Shown: positions 1-32,000 of the stretch, piece by piece
How the letters are laid out: every line of letters begins with the position of its first letter
Numbering within the stretch: the stretch's first letter is position 1
Origin: Candidatus Nanopusillus sp.
Lineage (GTDB): Archaea; Nanobdellota; Nanobdellia; Nanobdellales; Nanobdellaceae
DNA: 32,000 nt
Direction: 5' to 3'
Assembly: GCA_028275885.1 (NCBI GenBank)
Contig: JAPWTW010000004.1
Location: forward strand, 46,992 to 78,991
Notes under the pieces: model-generated
The model's input: the letters and a program-made list of their open reading frames with translations, nothing else
What the model was told of the DNA's origin: nothing
The model's database searches: none
Translations under genes and position numbers: made by a program

Positions 1-174
1 TGTTCCATTATTGGAATAGCACGCTCTTTCAACTGTTGCATATAAATTTTGACATGAAGATATATTTTTATATAATAATTGAGTCTCATTATTTATGCCT
101 GTAAATTTAAAATATAAATATAAAGATAAACCAAAAGCAATAATTGCTATAATTATCCAAAACCACTTTTCCAT
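1..174 (-). CDS. Small N-terminally membrane-anchored secreted protein, partial (3' end lies beyond the window start). Last visible member of the pilus-like operon.
   Basis: My own translation of the reverse complement from the ATG at 174-172 gives MEKWFWIIIAIIAFGLSLYLYFKFTGINNETQLLYKNISSCQNLYATVERACYSNNGT with no stop before position 1. It starts 2 nt after the stop of the 177..590 ORF. It has an N-terminal TM helix, N-x-S/T sequons and the same C-Q-x-L motif as its neighbours. Confidence 0.55.
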   Translation of the reverse strand, partial: MEKWFWIIIAIIAFGLSLYLYFKFTGINNETQLLYKNISSCQNLYATVERACYSNNGT

Positions 175-176
175 TT

Positions 177-590
177 TTATCCTTGAATATTAATATAAAC
201 ATAATTTCCTGCCGAATAAATTAATATATACTTTCCAGGATTTATATTATAATTACAATTTTGCATTGCAACATTTGGATCTATACTCTTTACTCCATTT
301 ATTAAATCTTCACATGTAAATGATGGCCCCTGATAATGAATCAAGTAACAGAGACCTTGAGCTTTTTTATAATAACATGATACCACATTCATTGCAACAG
401 TTGTCATTGAACTTACATTTGTTTCTACTACAGTCTGTGTAGTATTGTATTTGGGCATTATGTTATTTATGTATGAAGATATATTTTCTCTTAATACAAA
501 TATTATTCCTGCAATTGTTAATGTAACAATTATTCCAATAAAGATTAAAAAAGTATAATTAATTGGGAGCTCTTGAATTCTCATTGCCAT
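177..590 (-). CDS. Small N-terminally anchored, 4-Cys putative surface/minor-pilin-like protein (hypothetical).
   Basis: 137 aa with a single N-terminal hydrophobic helix (YTFLIFIGIIVTLTIAGIIFVL). It has 4 Cys, several N-x-S/T sequons and the C-terminal strand motif KYILIYSAGNYVYINIQG shared with neighbours. It overlaps the upstream ORF by 10 nt. Confidence 0.6.
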   Translation of the reverse strand: MAMRIQELPINYTFLIFIGIIVTLTIAGIIFVLRENISSYINNIMPKYNTTQTVVETNVSSMTTVAMNVVSCYYKKAQGLCYLIHYQGPSFTCEDLINGVKSIDPNVAMQNCNYNINPGKYILIYSAGNYVYINIQG

Positions 591-1060
591 ATTATAATAT
601 AGCTATTGTTGTATATTATAAATATGCTGTTGTATGGATATATATTTCCTCCACTATTATTTAAATGGAATATAATTTTATTTGGATTAAATTTAGTATA
701 ATTTTGTACATATTGTATTAATGTTGCTGAATTTAGGATAATATTCTTATTTATATAAACATCATAACATATATTAAATAATTTATTTGTATTTACATTA
801 TTATTATAACAATTTAATATTAATCCTACTATACTTAAATAAATTGTATCAATACTCTCATTTGTATATATTATATTTATTGCAGAAGGATAATATTTTT
901 CACATGATGGAGAAAAACCACCTTGTGATATTAATGTTTGACAATAATATGCTTGAGAATTGCTAAAGAATTTTGTATATATAATACTCAATATAACTGC
1001 GACAGATATTATTGCTATTATTATTATAAATATTGTATCTATTGTTATATCATTCTTCAT
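581..1060 (-). CDS. Small N-terminally anchored, 4-Cys putative surface/minor-pilin-like protein (hypothetical).
   Basis: 159 aa with an N-terminal TM helix (IFIIIIAIISVAVILSIIY). The YYCQTL motif follows the helix. It has 4 Cys, a C-terminal SIFIIYNNSYIIIWQ, and a 4-nt overlap with the upstream ORF. Confidence 0.6.
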   Translation of the reverse strand: MKNDITIDTIFIIIIAIISVAVILSIIYTKFFSNSQAYYCQTLISQGGFSPSCEKYYPSAINIIYTNESIDTIYLSIVGLILNCYNNNVNTNKLFNICYDVYINKNIILNSATLIQYVQNYTKFNPNKIIFHLNNSGGNIYPYNSIFIIYNNSYIIIWQ

Positions 1061-1341
1061 ATATAATTAATACTTCCATTATAAATATATATAATTCTAT
1101 ATCCAGCAGGTATTGTTATTCCATTTATTGTACAATTTTCATTAAGAAATACTTTAATATCAATTATTTCTTGAAAACTTTTATTATATAAGTTTTTTAG
1201 TTGTTGGCAATTAATTGTTTGTATACTATTTTCACTTAAATTATTTTTTACATTATAAATATAATAAAAAGAAAATAGGCCAGCAGCTATAATTAATATA
1301 AAAGTTATTATAATCCAATATATTGTTTGTTGTAATTTCAT
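1057..1341 (-). CDS. Small N-terminally anchored, 2-Cys putative surface/minor-pilin-like protein (hypothetical).
   Basis: 94 aa with an N-terminal TM helix (IYWIIITFILIIAAGLFSFYYIY). It carries the NCQQL motif, 2 Cys and a C-terminal GYRIIYIYNGSINYI. Its start overlaps the stop of the platform gene by 4 nt. Confidence 0.6.
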   Translation of the reverse strand: MKLQQTIYWIIITFILIIAAGLFSFYYIYNVKNNLSENSIQTINCQQLKNLYNKSFQEIIDIKVFLNENCTINGITIPAGYRIIYIYNGSINYI

Positions 1342-3308
1342 AATTGTATATTTGTTGGTAAATATGGGCCAAATATTGTATATACTATTAATATTCCTAT
1401 TATTGAAAATATAACATAAAATATTGTTCCAGACAATAAATTTCTACCTATATAATATGATGTCATTGTATTGTCAAATCCATATTTTATTCCAGCACTC
1501 ATATATGAAGTTATTATTACATATTCTATAAAAAATGTACCAATTATTGCTTCAAAAAATGTTGGCGGTATTAAATTATATAGATTAAATGTATTTACAA
1601 CAAAATTGAATATATTTGTTCCTCCACCAAGACCAAAAGATTGATCTATTAATTGAAAGAAATATGCAAGTGCAAAAAGCATTGAAACTATACCATTATT
1701 AAAAATTGTAACTATTGCAGAAATTAATGGTACAAGATTTTTTGATGTTATATCTATTAATCCAATTATTTCATTTAATATTTTTCTTACGCTATATCTT
1801 ATGTTATTTACATTTTCTAAGTTTGTTGATATATTATATGCGATCTTTGATAAAACTTCAGGACCTTTTGATACAGAAGTAACTAAAAGTTGCATAGATT
1901 CTCTTACTAATTTTGATGGATATAAATTTAATGAACCAATTTTTGAATCAAATATAGAAGTACTTAAATCATAACCCCTTCTTAAATTATATAATGTTGT
2001 TTTTAGAAAATTTTCCATAATTCCAGATGATTTTATTATTTTATAATTATAATATGTTTTTTCAATTACTATTTCAAATGGATAGCCATCTTCTAATAAT
2101 GATGCAAATTCATATATAACAATTGGAAACTCATTTTCTATTTCTTCAATTTGATATATTTTTTTAACTTTTTGAAAAGATGTTAAATAATAATAAGATC
2201 CTATACTTAAACCCAACCCTAAAGGTAATGTTAAAGTTAAAACAGAATATATTAGCGCTCTATCTTGATAAACTATATTTAAATATTCACTTAAAAATCC
2301 CTGTGGAATAAATGTAATTCTTATAGCTAAAGAAACTAAATGATATATTCCCAGAACTGCAATCGATCCCAATATTATTGAAATTATTATTGCTGGAACT
2401 TCTTTATTTCCAATTTTAAATTTTCCAGGTTTTGGTAAATCTCTTGCTAAAGATAAATCTGGAACAGAAAATGCAAAAGGATTTTTTGATAGGAAGTTTT
2501 GAATTATTAAAAATGTAATAACTGGTAAAATTATTATATATGAAAATGCTATGAAATAGAAACTTACAGTATTTAATAAAAATGTAGATATTATTGGTAA
2601 TAGCAATAAACTAACTATTGGCATCATTACTAAAAAAGATACTATAACTGTTGCAGGTTCTTTTAAGGCATCTACATATAATTGGGATTTTTCTAATGAT
2701 TTTTTTAATACCCATCCCAATATTCTATCTAATAATTTATTTATATCATCAATAGATGTTTTATATTTAATATTTACAATATGTGTCATTGCATATGCAA
2801 AATCTGGACTTAAATAAAACCATCGTCTTTGATAGTATTCTAATGCAGATTCTATATCTTTAAATTTATTTGTTTCTAAATTATATAATAATGATCTAAA
2901 GTCTGTTGCAATATAACCTCTCATATAATATGCTACATATTTTATTCCATTTTCTAAATTAGGATTCCTTTTTAGATATAATGATAAATATAATATTATC
3001 CATATAATTTCTGATGTTACTTGAATTCTAATAACCTGTGTATAAAATATTGGATAATATGCAAAATAGAATGATAATATTAATAAAGATATTAATAAAG
3101 AAAAAGCAAATTGAAAGCTAACAAAACTTAAAATAAAATATATAACTATAGAAAATAATATTAGAGTTACTACAGAAGAAAATATATTATCAGGATTTGT
3201 ATTTAATCTATTTAACCATAAATGAAAGGTATATTTTTTATATATTGGATCAGGAGCTTTTAGTTTTATTAAATTAAAATTATTATAAAAATATTCAAAA
3301 AAACTCAT
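1338..3308 (-). CDS. Polytopic membrane protein, FlaJ/TadC/PilC-like (T2SS-F type) type-IV-filament assembly platform.
   Basis: 656 aa built from alternating TM bundles and two soluble domains of about 100-150 aa. The second soluble domain (EFPIVIYEFASLLEDGYPFEIVIEKT...LYNLRRGYDLSTSIF...LVTSVSKGPEVLSKIAYNISTNLE) matches my recollection of the T2SSF helical repeat. The protein contains no cysteine at all. It sits inside the operon of anchored secreted proteins. Confidence 0.6.
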   Translation of the reverse strand: MSFFEYFYNNFNLIKLKAPDPIYKKYTFHLWLNRLNTNPDNIFSSVVTLILFSIVIYFILSFVSFQFAFSLLISLLILSFYFAYYPIFYTQVIRIQVTSEIIWIILYLSLYLKRNPNLENGIKYVAYYMRGYIATDFRSLLYNLETNKFKDIESALEYYQRRWFYLSPDFAYAMTHIVNIKYKTSIDDINKLLDRILGWVLKKSLEKSQLYVDALKEPATVIVSFLVMMPIVSLLLLPIISTFLLNTVSFYFIAFSYIIILPVITFLIIQNFLSKNPFAFSVPDLSLARDLPKPGKFKIGNKEVPAIIISIILGSIAVLGIYHLVSLAIRITFIPQGFLSEYLNIVYQDRALIYSVLTLTLPLGLGLSIGSYYYLTSFQKVKKIYQIEEIENEFPIVIYEFASLLEDGYPFEIVIEKTYYNYKIIKSSGIMENFLKTTLYNLRRGYDLSTSIFDSKIGSLNLYPSKLVRESMQLLVTSVSKGPEVLSKIAYNISTNLENVNNIRYSVRKILNEIIGLIDITSKNLVPLISAIVTIFNNGIVSMLFALAYFFQLIDQSFGLGGGTNIFNFVVNTFNLYNLIPPTFFEAIIGTFFIEYVIITSYMSAGIKYGFDNTMTSYYIGRNLLSGTIFYVIFSIIGILIVYTIFGPYLPTNIQL

Positions 3309-3312
3309 TACA

Positions 3313-4074
3313 TTAGCTTGTTACACTTGGTATATTATTTAACTGGGAATATGGTACTTGTAATAAGAATTGACATAATGGCATTCCATTGACATTATTA
3401 TTTATACCTAATGCTGTACAATTTCCAGTTACTACTAATATTCCATTACTAACTGTTAAATTCAAATTACATCCATTTGCAGTATTATAATAGTTAATTA
3501 TCTTTAATAATGCACCAAATACTTGGTTTGTAATCCATGTTGGCAATTGTGCAGAACATTGTGCTGGACCTGGATATAATATTTGAGATGGAGAGGAAAT
3601 AATAATATTTGCTTGTCCTGATTTTATATCAAATGATGTAGCAGGAGAATAATTTCCAAATACATAACTTGTTGCTTGTGCTGGACTATAATATAGATCA
3701 TTAATATAATACTGACATTCTATATACATACAGTTAAGAGGCGTTATAGTATATCCTTCATGTTGACATTGACTAGAAGGGCCACCATATAATTGTAATA
3801 TTACACTACATGGAACAGCATTTGAACAGATATAATATCCAGGACTTACTTGTACAAGTCCATTTCCTATATTTTCATATTTTGTACAAAATGTTGTTGG
3901 GGTTGAACAATAGCTTGAACAATCTGAAACTGCCTGTTGTATTTGCGTATTTGATATTGTACTAATTTTTGATGATTGTTGTTGGAATAATTTAATTACA
4001 ATAACTGCTACTACTAACATTATTATTATTACAAATATTAACTGTACAGCTATATCTATACCTCTCCTTCTCAT
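3313..4074 (-). CDS. Cysteine-rich (12 Cys) secreted protein with a class-III (type IV pilin-like) signal-peptide-like N-terminus. Candidate major filament subunit or adhesin.
   Basis: The N-terminus MRRRG|IDIAVQLIFVIIIMLVVAVIVIKLF has a basic stretch, then Gly, then an immediate hydrophobic helix. The remainder is Ser/Thr/Asn/Gly-rich with 12 Cys and N-x-S/T sequons. It is the first gene of the operon and lies directly upstream of the platform gene with a 4-nt gap. Confidence 0.55.
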   Translation of the reverse strand: MRRRGIDIAVQLIFVIIIMLVVAVIVIKLFQQQSSKISTISNTQIQQAVSDCSSYCSTPTTFCTKYENIGNGLVQVSPGYYICSNAVPCSVILQLYGGPSSQCQHEGYTITPLNCMYIECQYYINDLYYSPAQATSYVFGNYSPATSFDIKSGQANIIISSPSQILYPGPAQCSAQLPTWITNQVFGALLKIINYYNTANGCNLNLTVSNGILVVTGNCTALGINNNVNGMPLCQFLLQVPYSQLNNIPSVTS

Positions 4075-4097
4075 AATTAAGGATAAACATTTTATTC

Positions 4098-4105
4098 TTT
4101 ATAAA
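4098..4105 (-). promoter_or_regulatory. TATA-box candidate for the pilus-like operon.
   Basis: TTTATAAA is centred about 27 nt upstream of the ATG at 4074, in the 36-nt gap after the DUF371 stop. This spacing is expected for a leaderless archaeal mRNA. The background is very AT-rich, so specificity is limited. Confidence 0.35.
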
Positions 4106-4110
4106 TATTT

Positions 4111-4518
4111 TTAATAATATATAATAAATTCTATATCTCTTTCATTCCTTAATCTTTCTATTAATCTTCTATCAATATCAATAGCACTCTTATTTGAATT
4201 TATTGCCAAAGTTCTATCATCAATATAATTGCTTTTTCTTATAACAATACTTCTATCATTTGTTAATAATAATCTTCTTGAACCATATGCAATTATCTTA
4301 TCTATTAATTCATCAACTTTAATTACAATTTTTATTTTTCCTTCATTTAATAAATGATCTTTAAGATCCTCTGGTAAATCTTTTACAGAGTAATTTGCAC
4401 TTATACCAATTATACAATCCCCTCTTTCAGTTAAATAATTGTCTTTAGTAATTTCTAAAGTACTTTTATGTGTTGCTTTTATTAATTTATTTCCCTTAGC
4501 TTTTATTACTAATTTCAT
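4111..4518 (-). CDS. DUF371-family protein (conserved archaeal protein of unknown function).
   Basis: 135 aa. The motif IKATHKSTLEITKDNYLTERGDCIIGI matches the H-x-T-T-x-E-I-T-K...RGDCI pattern I recall for DUF371. Confidence 0.6.
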   Translation of the reverse strand: MKLVIKAKGNKLIKATHKSTLEITKDNYLTERGDCIIGISANYSVKDLPEDLKDHLLNEGKIKIVIKVDELIDKIIAYGSRRLLLTNDRSIVIRKSNYIDDRTLAINSNKSAIDIDRRLIERLRNERDIEFIIYY

Positions 4519-5347
4519 TTAAGTAATTTAATATTTCTCTTGTAACATTTTTATTTAAATATTTATCAAACCCCTCATATTGAAATATATGATGTAAATC
4601 TATTAAATAATATTGATTATCTTTTAATAATAGATCAAATGCAAATATTTGTAAGTCGCATTTTTCCATAATTTTATATCCAATATCTATTATTTCTTCA
4701 TCTAATTTATATTTTCTTCCATATCCACCCTGACTAATATTTGCCTTAAAACTATTTTTATTAATTCTTTCCATTGCATCAATAGGTTTTCCCACAAAAA
4801 TTATCCTTATATCTTTCTCATAAGGTATATATTTTTGAAATATTAAATGTTTTATATTTATTTTCTTCTCCAATAAATATTTTTCTAAAAAATCATATAA
4901 TTCTTTTTCATTATCTATTTTATGTACAAATTCTCCTCTATGAGCAAATTGATGCTTTATTATCATTGGAAATCCTATCTTATTTATTACATATTCTATG
5001 TTATCTATTGAATATATCTTCACAAATTCTGGAATTTTTATATATTTATTAAGAACACTATAAAATAAGGTTTTTGATATTATAGATTCTTTAACATGTA
5101 TTTTATTTATTACTTCTTTTCCATTTTTTTCAAGATATTTTGCCAAAAAGTGTATATCAGATAAAAAATTTGATCCAACGAAAAAGTAATATATATCATA
5201 GTTTAATATTTTTTCATTATATGGAAATATGTTATCCTTTTCTATATCAATTATTTCAATGTTATTATAATTTTTTATTTCTTCTTTTAACTTTATTATT
5301 CTATAATCTTGTAAATCAGGTTTTGTTAATATAGCTACTCTACCCAT
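4496..5347 (-). CDS. ATP-grasp ligase, RimK/alpha-L-glutamate ligase-like.
   Basis: 283 aa. The pattern GFPMIIKHQFAHRGEFVHKI...IFQKYIPYEKDIRIIFVG...FKANISQGGYG...IFAFDLL follows the RimK-type ATP-grasp pattern. The 3' end overlaps the DUF371 start by 23 nt. Confidence 0.7.
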   Translation of the reverse strand: MGRVAILTKPDLQDYRIIKLKEEIKNYNNIEIIDIEKDNIFPYNEKILNYDIYYFFVGSNFLSDIHFLAKYLEKNGKEVINKIHVKESIISKTLFYSVLNKYIKIPEFVKIYSIDNIEYVINKIGFPMIIKHQFAHRGEFVHKIDNEKELYDFLEKYLLEKKINIKHLIFQKYIPYEKDIRIIFVGKPIDAMERINKNSFKANISQGGYGRKYKLDEEIIDIGYKIMEKCDLQIFAFDLLLKDNQYYLIDLHHIFQYEGFDKYLNKNVTREILNYLNEISNKS

Positions 5348-5398
5348 TCTTAATATCTGAGAGGTAAAGTTATAAGTTTTTTATAAAAAATAAAATAA

Positions 5399-5713
5399 AT
5401 GGCTAAATCTACTAAAAAGTCCAAATCTAAAAAAGCTTCCAAGGTTAATCAAACTAAAAAAAGTTTAAGTGAGTTATCAGAAATTGATATAACAAAACAT
5501 TATTTAGTACCAAAACATATAATATTATCTGAAGAAGAAAAGAAAGAATTATTAGAAAAGTATAAAGTATCTTTATCAGATTTACCAAAGATTAAAATAT
5601 CAGATCCGGCAATAAAGAATTTAAATGCTAAGCCTGGAGATATTGTTAAGATTATAAGAAATAATCCATGGATTGGGGAAGAAATATATTATAGAGTTGT
5701 TGTTGAGGATTAA
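5399..5713 (+). CDS. rpoH: DNA-directed RNA polymerase subunit H (Rpo5) with a roughly 30-aa Lys/Ser-rich N-terminal extension.
   Basis: [54 protein letters not shown]...YYRVVV is the canonical RpoH core. It lies immediately upstream of rpoB. Confidence 0.93.
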
Positions 5714-15585: not shown

Positions 15586-16413
15586 TTATTCAAATATTTT
15601 TTTATATATTTCTTTTAGTTGACTTGGAACAACATGTGTATATATTTGTGTAATATTTAATGAACTATGTCCTAGTATTTCTTGTATATATCTTATATCA
15701 ACACCTTTTGATAATAATGTTGTTGCAAGAGAATGTCTCAATACATGAGGGGTCACTTTTTTACTTATTCCAGCTTTTTTTGCAATATTCTTTATAATTC
15801 TTTCTACTTGCCTTGGTGATAATGGAAAAATATTTTCAGTATTTATTTTATTTATATAATCTTTTAACTCATTTAACAATTCTTTTGGTATTGGTACTAT
15901 TCTTTCTTTCCCACCCTTTCCATATACTTTTACAAAACCTTCTTCAAAAATTATATCATTCTTTTTTATTTTTATTAATTCGGAAACTCTTACCCCAGTA
16001 TAAAATAAGAATTTAATAATTAATTTATCTCTATAATTTTCAGCATTTTCTAATAATTTATTTAATTCATCATATGTAATAAATTTTGGTAATCTTTTAT
16101 CTACCTTTGGAGCTTTTATTTGCTTTGCTAAATTTTCATTATCTAAAAATTTTAGAAATGAAGATAGAGCTCTAATATATAATCTTAATGAATTTGAATC
16201 CAATTTTTTCTCAACCTTTAATTTAGATAAAAATTTTAGGATTAAATTTTTGTCTAATGAATTATTAATAGATTTTATATCTTTAATAATTATTCCATTA
16301 TTTATTAGAAATTCTAAAAATTTCTTTATTATACCAGAATATGTTTTTATTGTATTTTTAGATTTTCCCTGTATCTCTAACCATACTTTATATTCTTCAA
16401 TAATTTCATTCAT
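15586..16413 (-). CDS. xerA: Tyrosine recombinase, XerA/XerC/XerD-like.
   Basis: 275 aa. It has an N-terminal SAM-like core-binding domain and a C-terminal catalytic region (GVRVSEL...HVLRHSLATTLLSKGVDIRYIQEILGHSSLNITQIYTHV) carrying the R..HxxR..Y residues. Confidence 0.88.
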   Translation of the reverse strand: MNEIIEEYKVWLEIQGKSKNTIKTYSGIIKKFLEFLINNGIIIKDIKSINNSLDKNLILKFLSKLKVEKKLDSNSLRLYIRALSSFLKFLDNENLAKQIKAPKVDKRLPKFITYDELNKLLENAENYRDKLIIKFLFYTGVRVSELIKIKKNDIIFEEGFVKVYGKGGKERIVPIPKELLNELKDYINKINTENIFPLSPRQVERIIKNIAKKAGISKKVTPHVLRHSLATTLLSKGVDIRYIQEILGHSSLNITQIYTHVVPSQLKEIYKKIFE

Positions 16414-16443
16414 TTATATTCCAGAAACTTTGTGATATAAAAA

Positions 16444-16451
16444 TTTTAAAT
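16444..16451 (+). promoter_or_regulatory. TATA-box candidate for the sRNA locus.
   Basis: TTTTAAAT is centred about 26 nt upstream of 16474, the first base of the GC-rich hairpin. Confidence 0.4.
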
Positions 16452-16473
16452 AATAAAAATATTATAATTTTAT

Positions 16474-16527
16474 CCCTACCTGCCATGCACTGGGGATATA
16501 TGAACCAGTTCCTCCAGGTAGGGAAGA
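16474..16527 (+). ncRNA. H/ACA-like guide RNA candidate (single pocket hairpin plus ANA trinucleotide).
   Basis: The lower stem CCCTACCTG (16474-16482) pairs with CAGGTAGGG (16515-16523) over 9 perfect bp. The internal loop has 6 nt (CCATGC) on one side and 5 nt (TCCTC) on the other. The upper stem ACTGG (16489-16493) pairs with CCAGT (16505-16509). The 11-nt apical loop GGATATATGAA contains GA dinucleotides. AGA at 16525-16527 lies just 3' of the stem, 15-17 nt from the upper-stem base. The locus is a GC-rich island in an AT-rich intergenic region. Confidence 0.45.
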
Positions 16528-16528
16528 A

Positions 16529-16581
16529 TAATGATGTAGTTGGCTTGAAACTGAAAAATGATGAATACGGCTACGCTGATA
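16529..16581 (+). ncRNA. C/D-box sRNA (2'-O-methylation guide) with a complete C, D', C', D box set.
   Basis: C box ATGATGT is at 16531-16537, followed by a 13-nt guide. D' box CTGA is at 16551-16554, followed by a 3-nt spacer. C' box ATGATGA is at 16558-16564, followed by an 11-nt guide. D box CTGA is at 16576-16579. Box order and spacing match archaeal C/D sRNAs. The locus is intergenic and the boxes read only on the + strand. Confidence 0.7.
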
Positions 16582-16588
16582 AAAATAT

Positions 16589-17215
16589 TTATAATATATT
16601 TTTTATAATATCTTTGGCTTTAGAAGCATATTTTTTATATTTTTTCGAATATTCATCAAATATATTGTAAAATAAGTCTTCATCATAGCTATATTTTTTC
16701 ATCAAATAAGCTAATATTTTTATATCATTCCAGTCCTTTTCTTCCTTTCTATTTAAATAGGTAAATATTTTATCTACTAATAGATATTCCATTTTAGCAA
16801 CATATAATTTTATTTTCTTTTTGTTCAAATTTAATTCTATTTCATTATATGGTACTTCTTTATCTTTAAATAATATACTTATGCTAGGGCCATATTTATA
16901 TTCAATTTTAATTCCATCATATCCAAATATTATTCTTTCCTTAATTGATAAATTTGATAATTTTCTATATATTATTTCTTTTGCATTTACTTTTTTATTT
17001 TTATTTATTATAAAATCTATATCATTTGTACTTCTATATTTCTCATGAGTATAATAATATATATATGCAGCTACAGCCATTCCACCTATTAATACTGGTT
17101 TTACTTTATCATTATCACTAAATATTTTTAATATACTTTCAAGATTTTTTATTGTAGGCTTATCAGTTAATTTATAACCTTCCTGTGATATATTGTTTGA
17201 TATTACACGTGGCAT
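16589..17215 (-). CDS. Nucleotidyltransferase, AbiEii/DUF1814-like (type IV toxin-like). No adjacent antitoxin gene.
   Basis: 208 aa. LIGGMAVAAY...RSTNDIDFII is a GG...D-x-D NTase motif. A later LLVDKIFTYLNRKEEKDWNDIKIL resembles the conserved AbiEii helix (K..A...R...D..D). This is a motif-level call only. Confidence 0.4.
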   Translation of the reverse strand: MPRVISNNISQEGYKLTDKPTIKNLESILKIFSDNDKVKPVLIGGMAVAAYIYYYTHEKYRSTNDIDFIINKNKKVNAKEIIYRKLSNLSIKERIIFGYDGIKIEYKYGPSISILFKDKEVPYNEIELNLNKKKIKLYVAKMEYLLVDKIFTYLNRKEEKDWNDIKILAYLMKKYSYDEDLFYNIFDEYSKKYKKYASKAKDIIKNIL

Positions 17216-28792: not shown

Positions 28793-30100
28793 ATGTCCAT
28801 AATTTCCTATATAATATTAATAATAATATTTATAGAACTGTTAATGTCAATATATACTTTATTATTTTTGTTATCCTACGATAAAGAAGAAATTAATTAT
28901 GAAATTAAAGATTATCCGAGAGTATCAATAATTGTACCAGCATATAACGAAGGTAAAAATATAAAAAATACATTGGAAAGATTAATAGATTTGGAATATC
29001 CAAAAGATAAATTGGAAATAATTGTTGTAGATGATGGATCAAAAGATAATACATATGAAATAGCAAAAGAATATGAAGAAAAGTATGGTTTTGTAAAGGT
29101 ATATAAAAAGGAAAATGGTGGAAAATCTTCAGCATTAAATTATGGAATAAAGAGATCTAGTGGAGAAATAATTGTTACATTAGATGCAGATTCTATTCCA
29201 GAAAAGGATTCTTTAATAAAAATGTTAAAATATATGTATTATTATAATGCAGATATTGTTGTTCCAGCAATTCAAACAATTAATACAAAAAAATTAATTG
29301 AAAAGTATCAATATATTGATTATATTATACATAATTTCTCTGGTATTGTTGTCGATACAATGAATTCTGTATTTATAGCATCAGGCCCATTTTCTATATT
29401 TAAAAGATCTGTATTTGAAAAAATTGGATTATTTGATGAAAAAAATATAAGTGAAGATATGGAAATTGCATTAAGAGCTCAAAAAAATAATTTTAAAATA
29501 AAATTTTGTCCTGAGGTTATTATAAAAACAGTTCCTCCAGATAATTTTAAATCATTATTAAAGCAAAGGGTAAGGTGGGCGCTTGGATTTATTGATAATT
29601 ATATGAAATATAGAGATATAGAAAATATATATTTGAGAGAAGTTGTTTTTGGCATTAATATAATTTTATATATTTTAATACCATTAGCATTTTCAGTAAT
29701 ATTATATACATATGGATATCAGTTATATAACTTTCTAATATATTTATCTTCTATAAATTATGATATATCATATCTTATAAAAAATTCCTTTTCTTTTAAT
29801 ATTAATACATATATCTTTCAATTATTATCCACATCTCAATTAATTTTAATGATATTTTCAATTATTTTATTAGTAGATTTCTTTCTTTTTATTAGTATAT
29901 ATAGAAGATATGATAAATCAAAATCTTGGTTATCAATAATTTATTATTCGATTATATATCTATTTTTTTCAATATACTTTAATGCAATTTTTATAATTGT
30001 AGCAATATACTATAAACTATTTGGTAAAAATCTAAGATGGGGCGGGATTGTATGGAATAATAGTTTAATAAATAAACTGTTAAATAAAAAATATGGATAA
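28793..30100 (+). CDS. Membrane-embedded family-2 glycosyltransferase, processive synthase type (PgaC/IcaA/NodC/chitin-synthase-like).
   Basis: 435 aa with an N-terminal TM helix. Catalytic motifs are VSIIVPAYNE, IIVVDDGSKDNT, LDADS and the processivity motif QRVRW. A cluster of C-terminal TM helices follows. Confidence 0.8.
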   Translation: MSIISYIILIIIFIELLMSIYTLLFLLSYDKEEINYEIKDYPRVSIIVPAYNEGKNIKNTLERLIDLEYPKDKLEIIVVDDGSKDNTYEIAKEYEEKYGFVKVYKKENGGKSSALNYGIKRSSGEIIVTLDADSIPEKDSLIKMLKYMYYYNADIVVPAIQTINTKKLIEKYQYIDYIIHNFSGIVVDTMNSVFIASGPFSIFKRSVFEKIGLFDEKNISEDMEIALRAQKNNFKIKFCPEVIIKTVPPDNFKSLLKQRVRWALGFIDNYMKYRDIENIYLREVVFGINIILYILIPLAFSVILYTYGYQLYNFLIYLSSINYDISYLIKNSFSFNINTYIFQLLSTSQLILMIFSIILLVDFFLFISIYRRYDKSKSWLSIIYYSIIYLFFSIYFNAIFIIVAIYYKLFGKNLRWGGIVWNNSLINKLLNKKYG

Positions 30101-30752
30101 GCCTAAGAACATAATAACAATATCGGTAATAATATCCGTACTATCCTTCTTCTTAGGAATAATTTTAGGCTATTTATTATATCAATATTCATTCCAACAG
30201 AGTATATTAAAAATTAATGAAATAAATTCTTTGGTAATTTCAGCTCAATATTTGGCAAATTCTCAAAGTTTAGAATGTAGTGATAGTTATTTATCTTTTT
30301 TAGAATATCTAAAATCGCGAATTGCCCAGGTTGGACAGGAATTAACATATTTAGAATCAAAGGAAAATATATACTACAATGAAGGAGAAGTAAAATATTT
30401 AAAATCCCAATATTTTAATATGCAATATTTGCATTATTTATTAACTAAAAAATATATAGAAGATTGCAATGTAACAAATTTCACATTGATTTTATATTTC
30501 TATAATAATCAATATTGTGGTAATAAATGTGCTATGGAGGGGGATATTTTAACTTATCTATATGTACAAAATAAAAATAGTTTGTATATATATTCATTTG
30601 ATTCAAGTTATCCAAATTATTTTATAAGTTATTATAATTTAAATTATAATATTACGACATGGCCATTTATTATTATATATAAACGTAATGAAACATACAC
30701 AATTAGAGGATTTGCAAGTTTAGATGAATTAAAAAGTTATTTAACAAAATAA
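30093..30752 (+). CDS. N-terminally anchored extracytoplasmic protein with 4 Cys. Possible thioredoxin-like fold (hypothetical).
   Basis: 219 aa with the TM helix IITISVIISVLSFFLGIILGYLLY. LILYFYNNQYCGNKC (C-x3-C after a beta-strand-like segment) and a later TWPFIIIY...G...ELKSYL are reminiscent of a Trx fold. The start overlaps the GT2 stop by 8 nt. Confidence 0.45.
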   Translation: MDKPKNIITISVIISVLSFFLGIILGYLLYQYSFQQSILKINEINSLVISAQYLANSQSLECSDSYLSFLEYLKSRIAQVGQELTYLESKENIYYNEGEVKYLKSQYFNMQYLHYLLTKKYIEDCNVTNFTLILYFYNNQYCGNKCAMEGDILTYLYVQNKNSLYIYSFDSSYPNYFISYYNLNYNITTWPFIIIYKRNETYTIRGFASLDELKSYLTK

Positions 30753-32000
30753 TCATTTACTCTATAAACATATATTTGACAACCATTTGGATCTATATAA
30801 TAATATATTAATGATATATTATAATCATTCGGATTAAATGGGAAAGGTACTCCACAATTTGGGGAATATACAATAAATTGTGGATAGACTCTTGGAATTA
30901 AATATGTGGCATTATACATTATATAAACTTGGGAATTTGTATAATATGCAATCATTGGCCAATTATCATTTGTTAATATCACTTCTGGATTATATTGTTT
31001 TAAATAATCTGAAGCTCTGTATATATAATTTAAATATGTGTTTCCAAGATTTGTATTATAATTTATTAGAAATATTATACCGTAATACATTGATACAATA
31101 TTTAATATAGAAAATAGGAATAAATATGGAAATTGTAAACCCTTTATTTTATTAATAAATATTCTAGTTAATATTAAAAATGGAGGTAATATCATTAAAA
31201 TATATCTTGGATCCTTTGACTTAACAAAAAATGCAAGAAATATTATTGATAATATTATATATAAATATATAGATTTATTATAGTTTTCAATCTTCTTTGG
31301 ATTTTGTAATAAAGAAAATAAATATGCAGAGGAAAATATAAGCAAATTAGATAAAAATAATGAAAAGGACTGATAAGATGTATATTTATAAACAACTTCA
31401 GTCTGTTTAATAAATATAAATATTGGATTATTGTATAATATTAAATTATATAAAAAGTATGGAATTAAAAATAGTAAAGAATATAATATTGTCTTTAATT
31501 TATCCTTATTCTTCAAAAAAATTATTGAAGAAATTAACCATAAACCATATTCATATTTTGAAAGAGTTGATAAAACTGAAAATAATGAATATGAAACTAA
31601 GTTCTTTTCTTTACTATCTTTAAAATATTTTATGTAGAAATATATGGAAAATACTAATAAAGAAGATGCTAAAATGTCTGGATAAATCCTTGATGCCCAA
31701 ATTAGAAATAAACCATTCAATGAATAAAATAAAATCAAAATATAGTTTATATATTCATTATCATATTCTTCTAATATTTTGTATAAAACTACTACAGATA
31801 AAGAAAAAACAAAAATTAAAAATAATTTTATAAAAAATATATTGAAATTTGTAATATAAGAAATTGGGATTAGCATCCACCACAATAATGGAAATCTATA
31901 ATATTCAAAATATGGTGTATTTAATAATACACGCTTTACATTGTTTAAATATGAATATTCATCCCAAAACAATATTGGTGGGGATAATAATAAAATAATT
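30737..32000 (-). CDS. GT-C fold polytopic glycosyltransferase, PMT/ArnT-like (COG1807-like). The 5' end probably lies beyond the window.
   Basis: It has at least 411 aa and many TM helices. The loop motif FWDEYSY (a DE motif after the first helix) is typical of the ArnT/PMT family. The track start at 31972 is a TTG codon. The frame stays open to position 32000 (...IILLLSPPI-L-FWDEY), so the true start is likely upstream. Confidence 0.55.
   Translation of the reverse strand, partial: IILLLSPPILFWDEYSYLNNVKRVLLNTPYFEYYRFPLLWWMLIPISYITNFNIFFIKLFLIFVFSLSVVVLYKILEEYDNEYINYILILFYSLNGLFLIWASRIYPDILASSLLVFSIYFYIKYFKDSKEKNLVSYSLFSVLSTLSKYEYGLWLISSIIFLKNKDKLKTILYSLLFLIPYFLYNLILYNNPIFIFIKQTEVVYKYTSYQSFSLFLSNLLIFSSAYLFSLLQNPKKIENYNKSIYLYIILSIIFLAFFVKSKDPRYILMILPPFLILTRIFINKIKGLQFPYLFLFSILNIVSMYYGIIFLINYNTNLGNTYLNYIYRASDYLKQYNPEVILTNDNWPMIAYYTNSQVYIMYNATYLIPRVYPQFIVYSPNCGVPFPFNPNDYNISLIYYYIDPNGCQIYVYRVNDYFVK

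Follow-up and report, generated by a model that had tools for sequence, protein, structure and literature searches.

We analysed a 32,000-nucleotide (nt) stretch of the genome of Candidatus Nanopusillus sp., a very small, host-dependent archaeon of hot springs (assembly GCA_028275885.1, contig JAPWTW010000004.1, positions 46,992 to 78,991 of the forward strand), hereafter the window, and in it a cluster of six minus-strand genes, here named g1 to g6, that lies within positions 1 to 4,074. The reading we favour, and hold to be fairly likely, is that this cluster encodes one half, platform and subunits, of a split type IV filament system of subclade 4F, with its ATPase encoded in trans and a probable role in contact with the host. 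g1 encodes a pilin-like protein, g2 a platform protein recognised through its homologues, and the remaining genes proteins with predicted N-terminal anchors; the gene order is kept in related genomes, and sister genomes encode an ATPase of the cognate type at another locus. An initial annotation of the window, which had proposed a type IV filament locus lacking an ATPase, was right in kind but overstated the paralogy of the small proteins, the novelty of the gene order and the absence of an ATPase from the organism.

Organization and conservation of the cluster

The cluster comprises the following features (lengths in amino acids, aa).

4098..4105, minus strand: TATA-like box TTTATAAA, 23 nt upstream of the g1 ATG
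3313..4074, minus strand: g1, 253 aa, pilin-like surface protein and candidate major subunit
1338..3308, minus strand: g2, 656 aa, predicted polytopic platform of the T2SS-F/TadC family (arCOG01814)
1057..1341, minus strand: g3, 94 aa, one N-terminal helix, candidate minor pilin-like or assembly component
581..1060, minus strand: g4, 159 aa, one N-terminal helix, 4 Cys
177..590, minus strand: g5, 137 aa, one N-terminal helix, 4 Cys
1..174, minus strand: g6, 58 codons visible (5' end), surface protein cut by the window edge

When re-derived, the junctions from g1 to g6 measured +4, -4, -4, -10 and +2 nt, exactly the dense packing described in the initial annotation. The TATA candidate proposed there also held up. 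A TATA-like octamer lies 21-23 nt upstream of the orthologous ATG in four related loci (L008, L001, L009 and L010; g2 53-93% identical), and this retained position suggests a leaderless or near-leaderless operon transcript, on evidence that is modest in a genome of ~24% G+C, the value of the window. No plus-strand open reading frame (ORF) opposite the cluster exceeds 59 aa, and nothing else notable was seen there on either strand.

Co-occurrence of the operon in related genomes was found as well, the cluster being syntenic across Nanopusillaceae: the order DUF371 / g1 / g2 / g3 is kept in the same four relatives, and g4 and g5 follow in the three loci that are long enough. Ratios of nonsynonymous to synonymous substitution rates (dN/dS) for g1-g5 against three relatives are 0.13-0.41, next to 0.04-0.36 for flanking housekeeping genes, and g1-g5 are therefore functional genes. 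Cys counts are even in g1 and g3-g6, compared with no Cys in the 656 aa of g2, and N-glycosylation sequons number one in g2 versus three to four in the much shorter other products; from this distribution the products of g1 and g3-g6 are predicted to lie external to the membrane.

g2 as a divergent platform protein

Besides lacking Cys, g2 has ~9-10 hydrophobic segments, and its AlphaFold (AF2) model, nearly all helical with its soluble domains included, has a predicted local distance difference test (pLDDT) score of 86.9. The initial assignment of g2 to the T2SS-F/FlaJ/TadC group stands through its homologues and through arCOG01814, but not through direct search with the 656-aa protein. Ten of 22 full-length relatives, recovered from a search of 5.8 billion proteins, match PF00482 (T2SSF), with a best E value of 1.7e-9. 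A profile search of 1.84 billion representatives returned 1,433 relatives (605 with E <1e-30), of which the best 150 are mostly 620-790 aa long and aligned over nearly their whole length. T2SSF was matched by five of ten sampled distant relatives, in either the N-terminal half (~150-300) or the C-terminal half (~433-587), and two of these matches exceed the Pfam gathering score, both halves being represented above that cut-off. An 80-sequence profile of the family had GspF/EpsF as its top match in the PDB (E 0.006), and comparison of the N-terminal and C-terminal halves of the family revealed a weak internal repeat (hhalign E 1.2e-3).

Among platforms encoded with an ATPase, the Aenigmatarchaeota protein that shares an operon with a T2SS-E ATPase is 27% identical to g2 (E 1e-61); over the platforms of L003 and L006 (both Aenigmatarchaeota) and L050 (Nanoarchaeia), homology is full-length at 25-27% identity (E 1e-37 to 1e-66). 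The g2-type platforms, which are not adjacent to an ATPase in the loci examined, form one clade (bootstrap 99%). By synteny, the N. acidilobi orthologue is Nps_00520, listed as 'uncharacterized conserved membrane protein' with nine transmembrane segments (TM) and arCOG01814. In the tables of Makarova and colleagues, arCOG01814 appears as 'Pilus assembly protein TadC' and is linked to subclade 4F (Makarova 2016). Because the homologues, rather than g2 itself, match T2SSF, we assign g2 by homology as a divergent platform of the TadC/T2SS-F/FlaJ superfamily.

The distant relationship of g2 to FlaJ, together with the location of terrestrial nanoarchaeal archaellum genes outside the traditional cluster, might point to an archaellum part, in which g2 would be a variant of FlaJ/ArlJ and g1 an archaellin. 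We regard this as effectively refuted. Nst1 has a separate 549-aa FlaJ (arCOG01809) as well as archaellins (arCOG01829), and N. acidilobi encodes FlaI, FlaH and FlaD/E at Nps_00925-00940; the cluster is not an archaellum because these components are encoded elsewhere. In addition, the g2 orthologue belongs to arCOG01814 and not arCOG01809, g1 has no archaellin match in Pfam, and Pfam scans found no archaellin (PF01917), FlaH/FlaI or arCOG01809 FlaJ at the window locus.

g1 carries a conserved class III-type signal

The initial description of g1 as a 12-Cys pilin-like protein with a prepilin-type signal was borne out. g1 has exactly 12 Cys, of which 11 are invariant and one is nearly invariant across 18 homologues, and it starts with MRRRG↓IDIAVQLIFVIII (MRRRG↓IDIAVQ; the arrow separates positions -1 and +1), followed by a hydrophobic helix. 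Substrates of archaeal prepilin peptidases need G, A or S at -1 and a charged residue at -2 (PMC4371748). Among the six products, only g1 combines a short basic leader, a charged -2 residue, G/A/S at -1 and a hydrophobic stretch of ~20 residues. The class III signal was thus found in g1 but not in g3-g6, which have no canonical G/A/S at -1. An acidic residue at +2, as in g1, would fail the strict FlaFind pattern.

Across the family the N-terminus follows M-[KR]-[KR]-[KR]-[G/A/S] ↓ [IV]-[DE]-[MI]-A-V-[QE], with sites that include KRRG, KKRA, KKRS, GKRS and GGKRG. After start-codon correction, A and S occupy -1 in diverged orthologues (S in L010), and the g1-like protein of the deep relative L011 begins MVAGGKRG↓IEQTIF. 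Since -1 varies only among G, A and S over deep divergence, the pattern is hard to explain without cleavage; together with K or R at -2, it follows the substrate rule of the archaeal peptidases exactly. In IMG one g1 orthologue is named 'pseudopilin PulG'. The structural model of g1 has an N-terminal helix (residues 2-36) and a mixed alpha/beta head that has no PDB match (AF2, pLDDT 76.6, three loops <50).

Relatives of g1 fall into 39 clusters at 90% identity, all from Nanopusillaceae and mostly from hot-spring metagenomes, compared with eight clusters for g2 over a similar identity range, and the dN/dS of g1 against its closest relative is the highest in the cluster (0.22 vs 0.13). Both figures fit a diversifying surface protein, although a short gene is also more readily recovered complete when contigs are short. 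Separately, a 148-aa fragment 80% identical to g1 (56% of g1 covered) is annotated in 'Candidatus Nanopusillus massiliensis', on a contig of 607,503 bp; it may be truncated or mis-called.

Small anchored proteins downstream of the platform

g3, g4, g5 and the visible part of g6 contain 2, 4, 4 and 2 Cys, respectively, and each has a single N-terminal hydrophobic segment. g3 (MKLQQTIYW...) has orthologues in all Nanopusillaceae loci, that of L010 starting MKG↓EIDLYF, and a dN/dS of 0.14-0.41. An orthologue of g4 (MKNDITIDTIF...) was traced as far as the deep relative L007 (28% identity, E 1e-10), and a 163-aa gene occupies the g4 position in L011. g5 begins MAMRIQELPINYTF..., its orthologues begin MKSQEMP or MKNQEMP, and its dN/dS is ~0.20. 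The N-terminus of g6 (MEKWFWIII...) is 64-67% identical to those of L001_579 and L009_256.

The initial annotation regarded these products as at least four small anchored paralogues. This did not survive comparison: BLASTP among g1 and g3-g6 gave no cross-matches, and profile-profile alignment with hhalign limited their likeness to the first 25-50 residues, except for a weak similarity between g4 and g5 (96 columns, probability 38%). We therefore reject paralogy among g1 and g3-g6 beyond the N-terminal helix. Nor are the last four products all short, as had been thought, since g6 is cut by the window edge and its orthologue in one relative has 579 aa.

At +1, the cluster orthologues mostly have Q, D or E, like EppA-type K[GA]↓Q substrates, but they break the -1 rule. 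The small proteins of homologous loci in other DPANN archaea bear canonical K[GA]↓Q and KRG↓IE signals, and the nanoarchaeal M-K-x N-termini therefore look like derived class III signals.

Pilin-like proteins in two deep relatives (L007 2342-2697 and L011 3853-4257) start M-E-hydrophobic (MELAVELVF... and MEFVIETIFKIII...), each closely preceded by a stop codon. The basic leader is missing altogether, as though the genes encoded the 'processed' form from the outset.

A papain-like protease in the cluster of some relatives

In relatives, the operon runs ~8 genes past window position 1, giving a cluster of ~13 genes in total. g5 is followed there by g6, several Cys-rich proteins that range from 140 to 510 aa and begin M-[KR]-[NSA]-Q, and a polytopic membrane protein of ~400 aa; in N. 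acidilobi the cluster spans 13 genes from Nps_00525 down to Nps_00465, with an arginase gene at the end. We considered the ~400-aa polytopic protein as a hidden prepilin peptidase and rejected it on finding neither a GxGD/GxHyD motif nor a Pfam match.

The 579-aa g6 orthologue, in YN1 (L001_579; L001 13201-14940), has a C-terminal papain-like Peptidase_C1 domain (E 6.4e-18), which is also present in L010_502 (L010 13579-15087; E 4.6e-11), and N. acidilobi Nps_00495 is listed as 'Peptidase C1A' with one TM. In some relatives the g6 orthologue consists of a membrane helix at the N-terminus, a linker rich in Pro and Ser, and a cysteine protease of the papain family; elsewhere it is split into two genes, shorter or without the protease. 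This architecture points to a surface-anchored protease within a pilus-type cluster of an obligate ectosymbiont.

Such cargo raises the possibility, which we consider unlikely as an account of the cluster, that it encodes a surface-display or secretion device, a short pseudopilus or bindosome-like array presenting the papain-like protease and the 400-500-aa Cys-rich proteins at the site of host contact. Several observations speak for it. An M-[KR]-x-Q plus helix N-terminus is common to the 510-, 409- and 215-aa proteins of L001, a related one is found on the 579-aa C1 protease, and an N-terminal module is shared by the 141-aa and 510-aa proteins (hhalign probability 94%). The homologous Aenigmatarchaeota locus L003 likewise ends in Cys-rich proteins of 451 and 595 aa with KG↓M and KA↓Q signals. 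'Functionalised' type IV filament (TFF) machineries and bindosomes are a recognised concept, and the Sulfolobus bindosome (Bas) resembles our cluster in that large proteins with pilin-type N-termini are encoded alongside the platform. The bindosome (subclade 4I) differs, however, in its substrate-binding proteins, and no product here matches substrate-binding-protein families; its ATPase, BasE, adjoins the platform BasF. Moreover, the leading position of g1 in the operon and its class III site, the best of all, give it the look of a major subunit. Pilus and display functions can also coexist.

A cognate-type ATPase is encoded in trans in sister genomes

The initial annotation found neither an ATPase nor a prepilin peptidase encoded in the window, and our screen agrees: no T2SS-E ATPase or A24 peptidase was detected among 27 Pfam-scanned ORFs, the RNA-polymerase, ribosomal-protein and a few small ORFs being assigned by synteny. 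An ATPase gene adjoins neither the cluster in the window nor its counterparts in the g2 clade (seven further AT-rich nanoarchaeal loci), and L005, a remoter homologue from outside the clade, has none adjacent. Neither an ATPase nor an A24 peptidase occurs among the genes of the full cluster in relatives, N. acidilobi included. 'ATPase-less' is accordingly correct in cis for the whole cluster, but not for the organism, since sister genomes encode a cognate-type 747-aa ATPase together with a second platform.

We scanned species-representative genomes with an AT-biased DNA pattern (Walker-A plus Asp-box) for RGSGKT[ST]-18 aa-EDTxE[IL]. The pattern detected the 747-aa ATPase in eight Nanopusillaceae genomes, N. 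acidilobi 7A, Nst1 and AB-777_F03 among them; when the Aenigmatarchaeota ATPase served as a protein query, all matches were close relatives from Aenigmatarchaeota. The evidence for an ATPase in trans comes from these sister genomes, the window's own genome being covered within the window. The module is as follows.

L051 (N. acidilobi CP010514) 49-5406, also L057 (Nst1) and L046 (AB-777_F03): trans ATPase module with a 747-aa ATPase, a 669-aa platform and two small proteins

The 747-aa ATPase gene overlaps that of the 669-aa platform, which is only 25% identical to g2, and the only pilin-like candidate nearby is a 132-aa Cys-rich single-helix protein. Full-length identity to the L003 ATPase is 41%, and the two small soluble neighbours, divergently transcribed, E/K-rich and coiled-coil in appearance by eye, each have a homologous counterpart in L003 (E 4e-15 and 2e-9). 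Nst1 has both halves: the ATPase locus (L057) and a g2 at least 90% identical to that of the window, the window g2 and a Ca. Nanobsidianus stetteri Nst1 protein sharing one 90%-identity cluster. In the N. acidilobi tables, Nps_02250 is assigned to arCOG01818, and Nps_02245 and Nps_00520 to arCOG01814. The same tables report detection of the arCOG01818 ATPase in the proteome and list two further ATPases: one, assigned to arCOG01817, is an orphan with single-TM proteins on either side, and the other is accompanied by two TadC genes (Wurch 2016). The 669-aa platform beside the ATPase is among the most polymorphic genes in population data (Jarett et al. 2018); we considered whether the highly polymorphic T2SSF gene of that study, 2735310502, is g2, and rejected this because the gene is the 669-aa paralogue.

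Homologous loci in other lineages keep the two halves together. The operon of L003 encodes a 745-aa T2SS-E ATPase, two pilins, a platform and seven further N-terminally anchored proteins; in L006, of a second lineage, the ATPase gene is directly upstream of the platform gene; and the Nanoarchaeia loci L035 and L050 have an ATPase in cis with a g2-family platform. The gene order of our cluster, initially set apart from those of the archaellum and the Ups/Aap pilus loci, is the DPANN layout of ATPase, pilins, platform and minor pilins minus the ATPase, and the family is subclade 4F. Because the sister-genome ATPase and its two partners are homologous to the in-cis module of Aenigmatarchaeota, comparison of these loci indicates that an ancestral single locus was split in Nanopusillaceae into an ATPase module, with one platform and no pilins nearby, and a subunit module with the g2 platform.

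In one deep relative (L013 7880-8719, minus strand), a KaiC/RecA-type 'ATPase' gene (PF06745, the family that includes FlaH) lies divergently just upstream of a g1-like gene, maybe by coincidence.

Placement within subclade 4F and comparison with known systems

Subclade 4F comprises an arCOG01818 ATPase, an arCOG01814 TadC, dedicated pilins and a coiled-coil accessory protein (Makarova, Koonin and Albers 2016). It is best described in Halobacteria and Methanomicrobia, its pilin families are arCOG02981, arCOG10216, arCOG04673 and arCOG05166, and its nanoarchaeal pilins were reported as not identified (Makarova 2016). Since arCOG01818 and arCOG01814 are both found in sister genomes, we place the cluster, on these assignments, in a nanoarchaeal branch of subclade 4F; a 'System 2 / clade 2' classification that we had considered was replaced on the same grounds. 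Shared with 4F are the arCOG01814 orthologue of g2, the arCOG01818 ATPase encoded in trans in sister genomes, and a single-gene platform of ~650 aa with ~9 TM followed by several small N-terminally anchored proteins; the small E/K-rich soluble proteins beside that ATPase may be a further parallel. Unlike 4F, the platform beside the pilin-like genes is here a second paralogue, apart from the ATPase; no match to a described pilin family exists for the subunits, and their -1 residue is mostly N or S rather than G or A; and the cargo includes a papain-like protease. No arCOG is assigned to Nps_00525 or to Nps_00500-00515 in the N. acidilobi table (Wurch 2016).

The DPANN loci L003, L006 and L050 resemble the cluster in their pilin or pilins, platform, five to seven small proteins with a single N-terminal helix and large Cys-rich proteins. 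In contrast to the cluster, they encode a T2SS-E ATPase of 745-766 aa in cis, their signals are canonical (K[GA]↓Q or KG↓I), and their small proteins show no detectable homology to g3-g5 past the N-terminus.

Separate loci for subunit and ATPase genes are also known from Haloferax volcanii, in which pilins are established to work in trans on an ATPase/TadC module (PilB3/PilC3 with PilA1-6). There, however, ATPase and platform remain together while the pilins stand alone, whereas here each module has one platform. Orphan ATPases too have precedent in the literature. As far as we found, no published system is described in which a platform paralogue left the ATPase locus and became associated with the subunit genes.

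The gap left by the identification of a 4F ATPase and TadC, and of no pilins, in nanoarchaea makes the cluster the obvious candidate, and it probably supplies the 'missing pilins' of the nanoarchaeal 4F machine. This candidate missing half comes with named partners, namely the 747-aa ATPase, the 669-aa platform paralogue and the papain-like protease.

Proposed assembly and evidence weighing against it

In the split 4F filament that we favour, Sec would insert g1 and the downstream proteins, which their N-terminal helices would keep anchored, and the g1 leader would be cleaved. g2, alone or paired with its 669-aa paralogue in the manner of TadB/TadC or EpdJ/EpdK, would engage an ATPase encoded in trans, most likely the 747-aa arCOG01818 enzyme, with the orphan arCOG01817 ATPase as an alternative. 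Coupling to the ATPase would then pull the helices from the membrane and polymerise g1 into a short pilus or pseudopilus, which would bear or display the minor subunits, the adhesin-like proteins and the papain-like protease and so attach to the host cell.

Several observations weigh against this proposal, beginning with the N-termini of the small proteins. g3-g6 do not conform to the class III motif (MKL↓Q, MKN↓D, MAMRI↓Q and MEKW.., respectively), and -1 in these and most downstream proteins is N, L, I, T or V; by hand count over 23 cluster orthologue N-termini, it is N in ~43% and G, A or S in only ~35%. No A24 prepilin peptidase is annotated in the N. acidilobi gene tables (Wurch 2016), and two nanoarchaea were reported to lack a prepilin peptidase (Makarova 2016). 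Pfam, NCBIfam and PDB searches with all six products gave no significant match; g2 alone matches neither PF00482 nor any NCBIfam or PDB entry at E<=1, and Foldseek of its model against the PDB was uninformative, the PDB having no useful full-length platform. g1 matches no pilin family in Pfam, and its head has no PDB match at E<2 (Foldseek) and resembles no solved pilin. A platform encoded apart from its ATPase is unusual, and no filament attributable to the cluster has been observed. Finally, the N. acidilobi table gives a proteome value for the ATPase Nps_02250 but for none of Nps_00465-00525. Detection by proteomics is difficult for proteins that are membrane-bound, glycosylated or rich in Cys.

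Taken at face value, the non-canonical -1 residues of most small proteins, the missing annotation of a prepilin peptidase, the want of an in-cis ATPase in any of the nine loci examined for the g2 clade (eight related ones and the window), and the lack of proteomic detection and of a pilin fold match would suit a simpler picture, in which the products are ordinary Sec-inserted, uncleaved signal-anchor surface glycoproteins and g2 is a degenerate, ATPase-independent paralogue acting, for example, as a membrane scaffold or chaperone, with no filament. We judge this quite improbable. g2 is conserved over its full length with ATPase-coupled platforms, both T2SSF repeats included; the genes are under purifying selection (dN/dS 0.13-0.22); the -1 residue of g1 stays within G, A and S; and the cognate ATPase module is kept in sister genomes.

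A more radical version of the split 4F filament, which we regard as unlikely, is a filament rewired in hyperthermophilic nanoarchaea, in which a dedicated second platform is genetically uncoupled from any ATPase, leaders have shrunk to M-K-[N/S] or, in some lineages, to nothing, the genomes have no recognisable prepilin peptidase, and the filament presents the papain-like protease and Cys-rich adhesins to open or hold the site of contact on the host S-layer. If true, this would be a host-attack or attachment organelle with processing unlike that of all characterised type IV filaments.

The cluster bears on how Nanopusillaceae, as obligate ectosymbionts, attach to and exploit their hosts. Type IV pilus parts and single-helix surface proteins are among the fast-diversifying genes in population data (Jarett 2018). 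With no annotated class III signal peptidase, the question arises of how nanoarchaeal pilin-like proteins are processed, and it could be addressed with two natural substrates, the g1 site with its G/A/S and the M-K-[N/S]-Q N-termini of the downstream proteins. Two further observations concern the peptidase: N. acidilobi has archaellum genes and at least four secretion ATPases despite having no annotated A24 enzyme, and an A24 prepilin peptidase is annotated in the host Acidilobus (SE86_03235).

Other features of the window

Beyond the cluster, the window has the gene order of the terrestrial nanoarchaeal locus: RimK-like ligase, DUF371, RpoH, split RpoB, RpoA'/A'', L30e, S12, S7 and PvlArgDC. 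Its sole RNA gene is a tRNA-Lys at 21.9 kb. Between PvlArgDC and the L10/L1/L11 ribosomal operon, positions 15586-17215 (minus strand) encode a tyrosine integrase (PF00589, E 6e-43) and an AbiEii-like nucleotidyltransferase; in N. acidilobi, a gene for cytochrome bd subunit 1 comes after PvlArgDC instead. The region could represent a small integrated element, or it could mark a point of rearrangement. A family-2 glycosyltransferase is encoded at 28793-30100 (plus strand) and a PMT_2-like (dolichyl-phosphate-mannose-type) transferase at 30737-31972 (minus strand), both of which may be relevant to the glycosylation of sequon-rich surface proteins.

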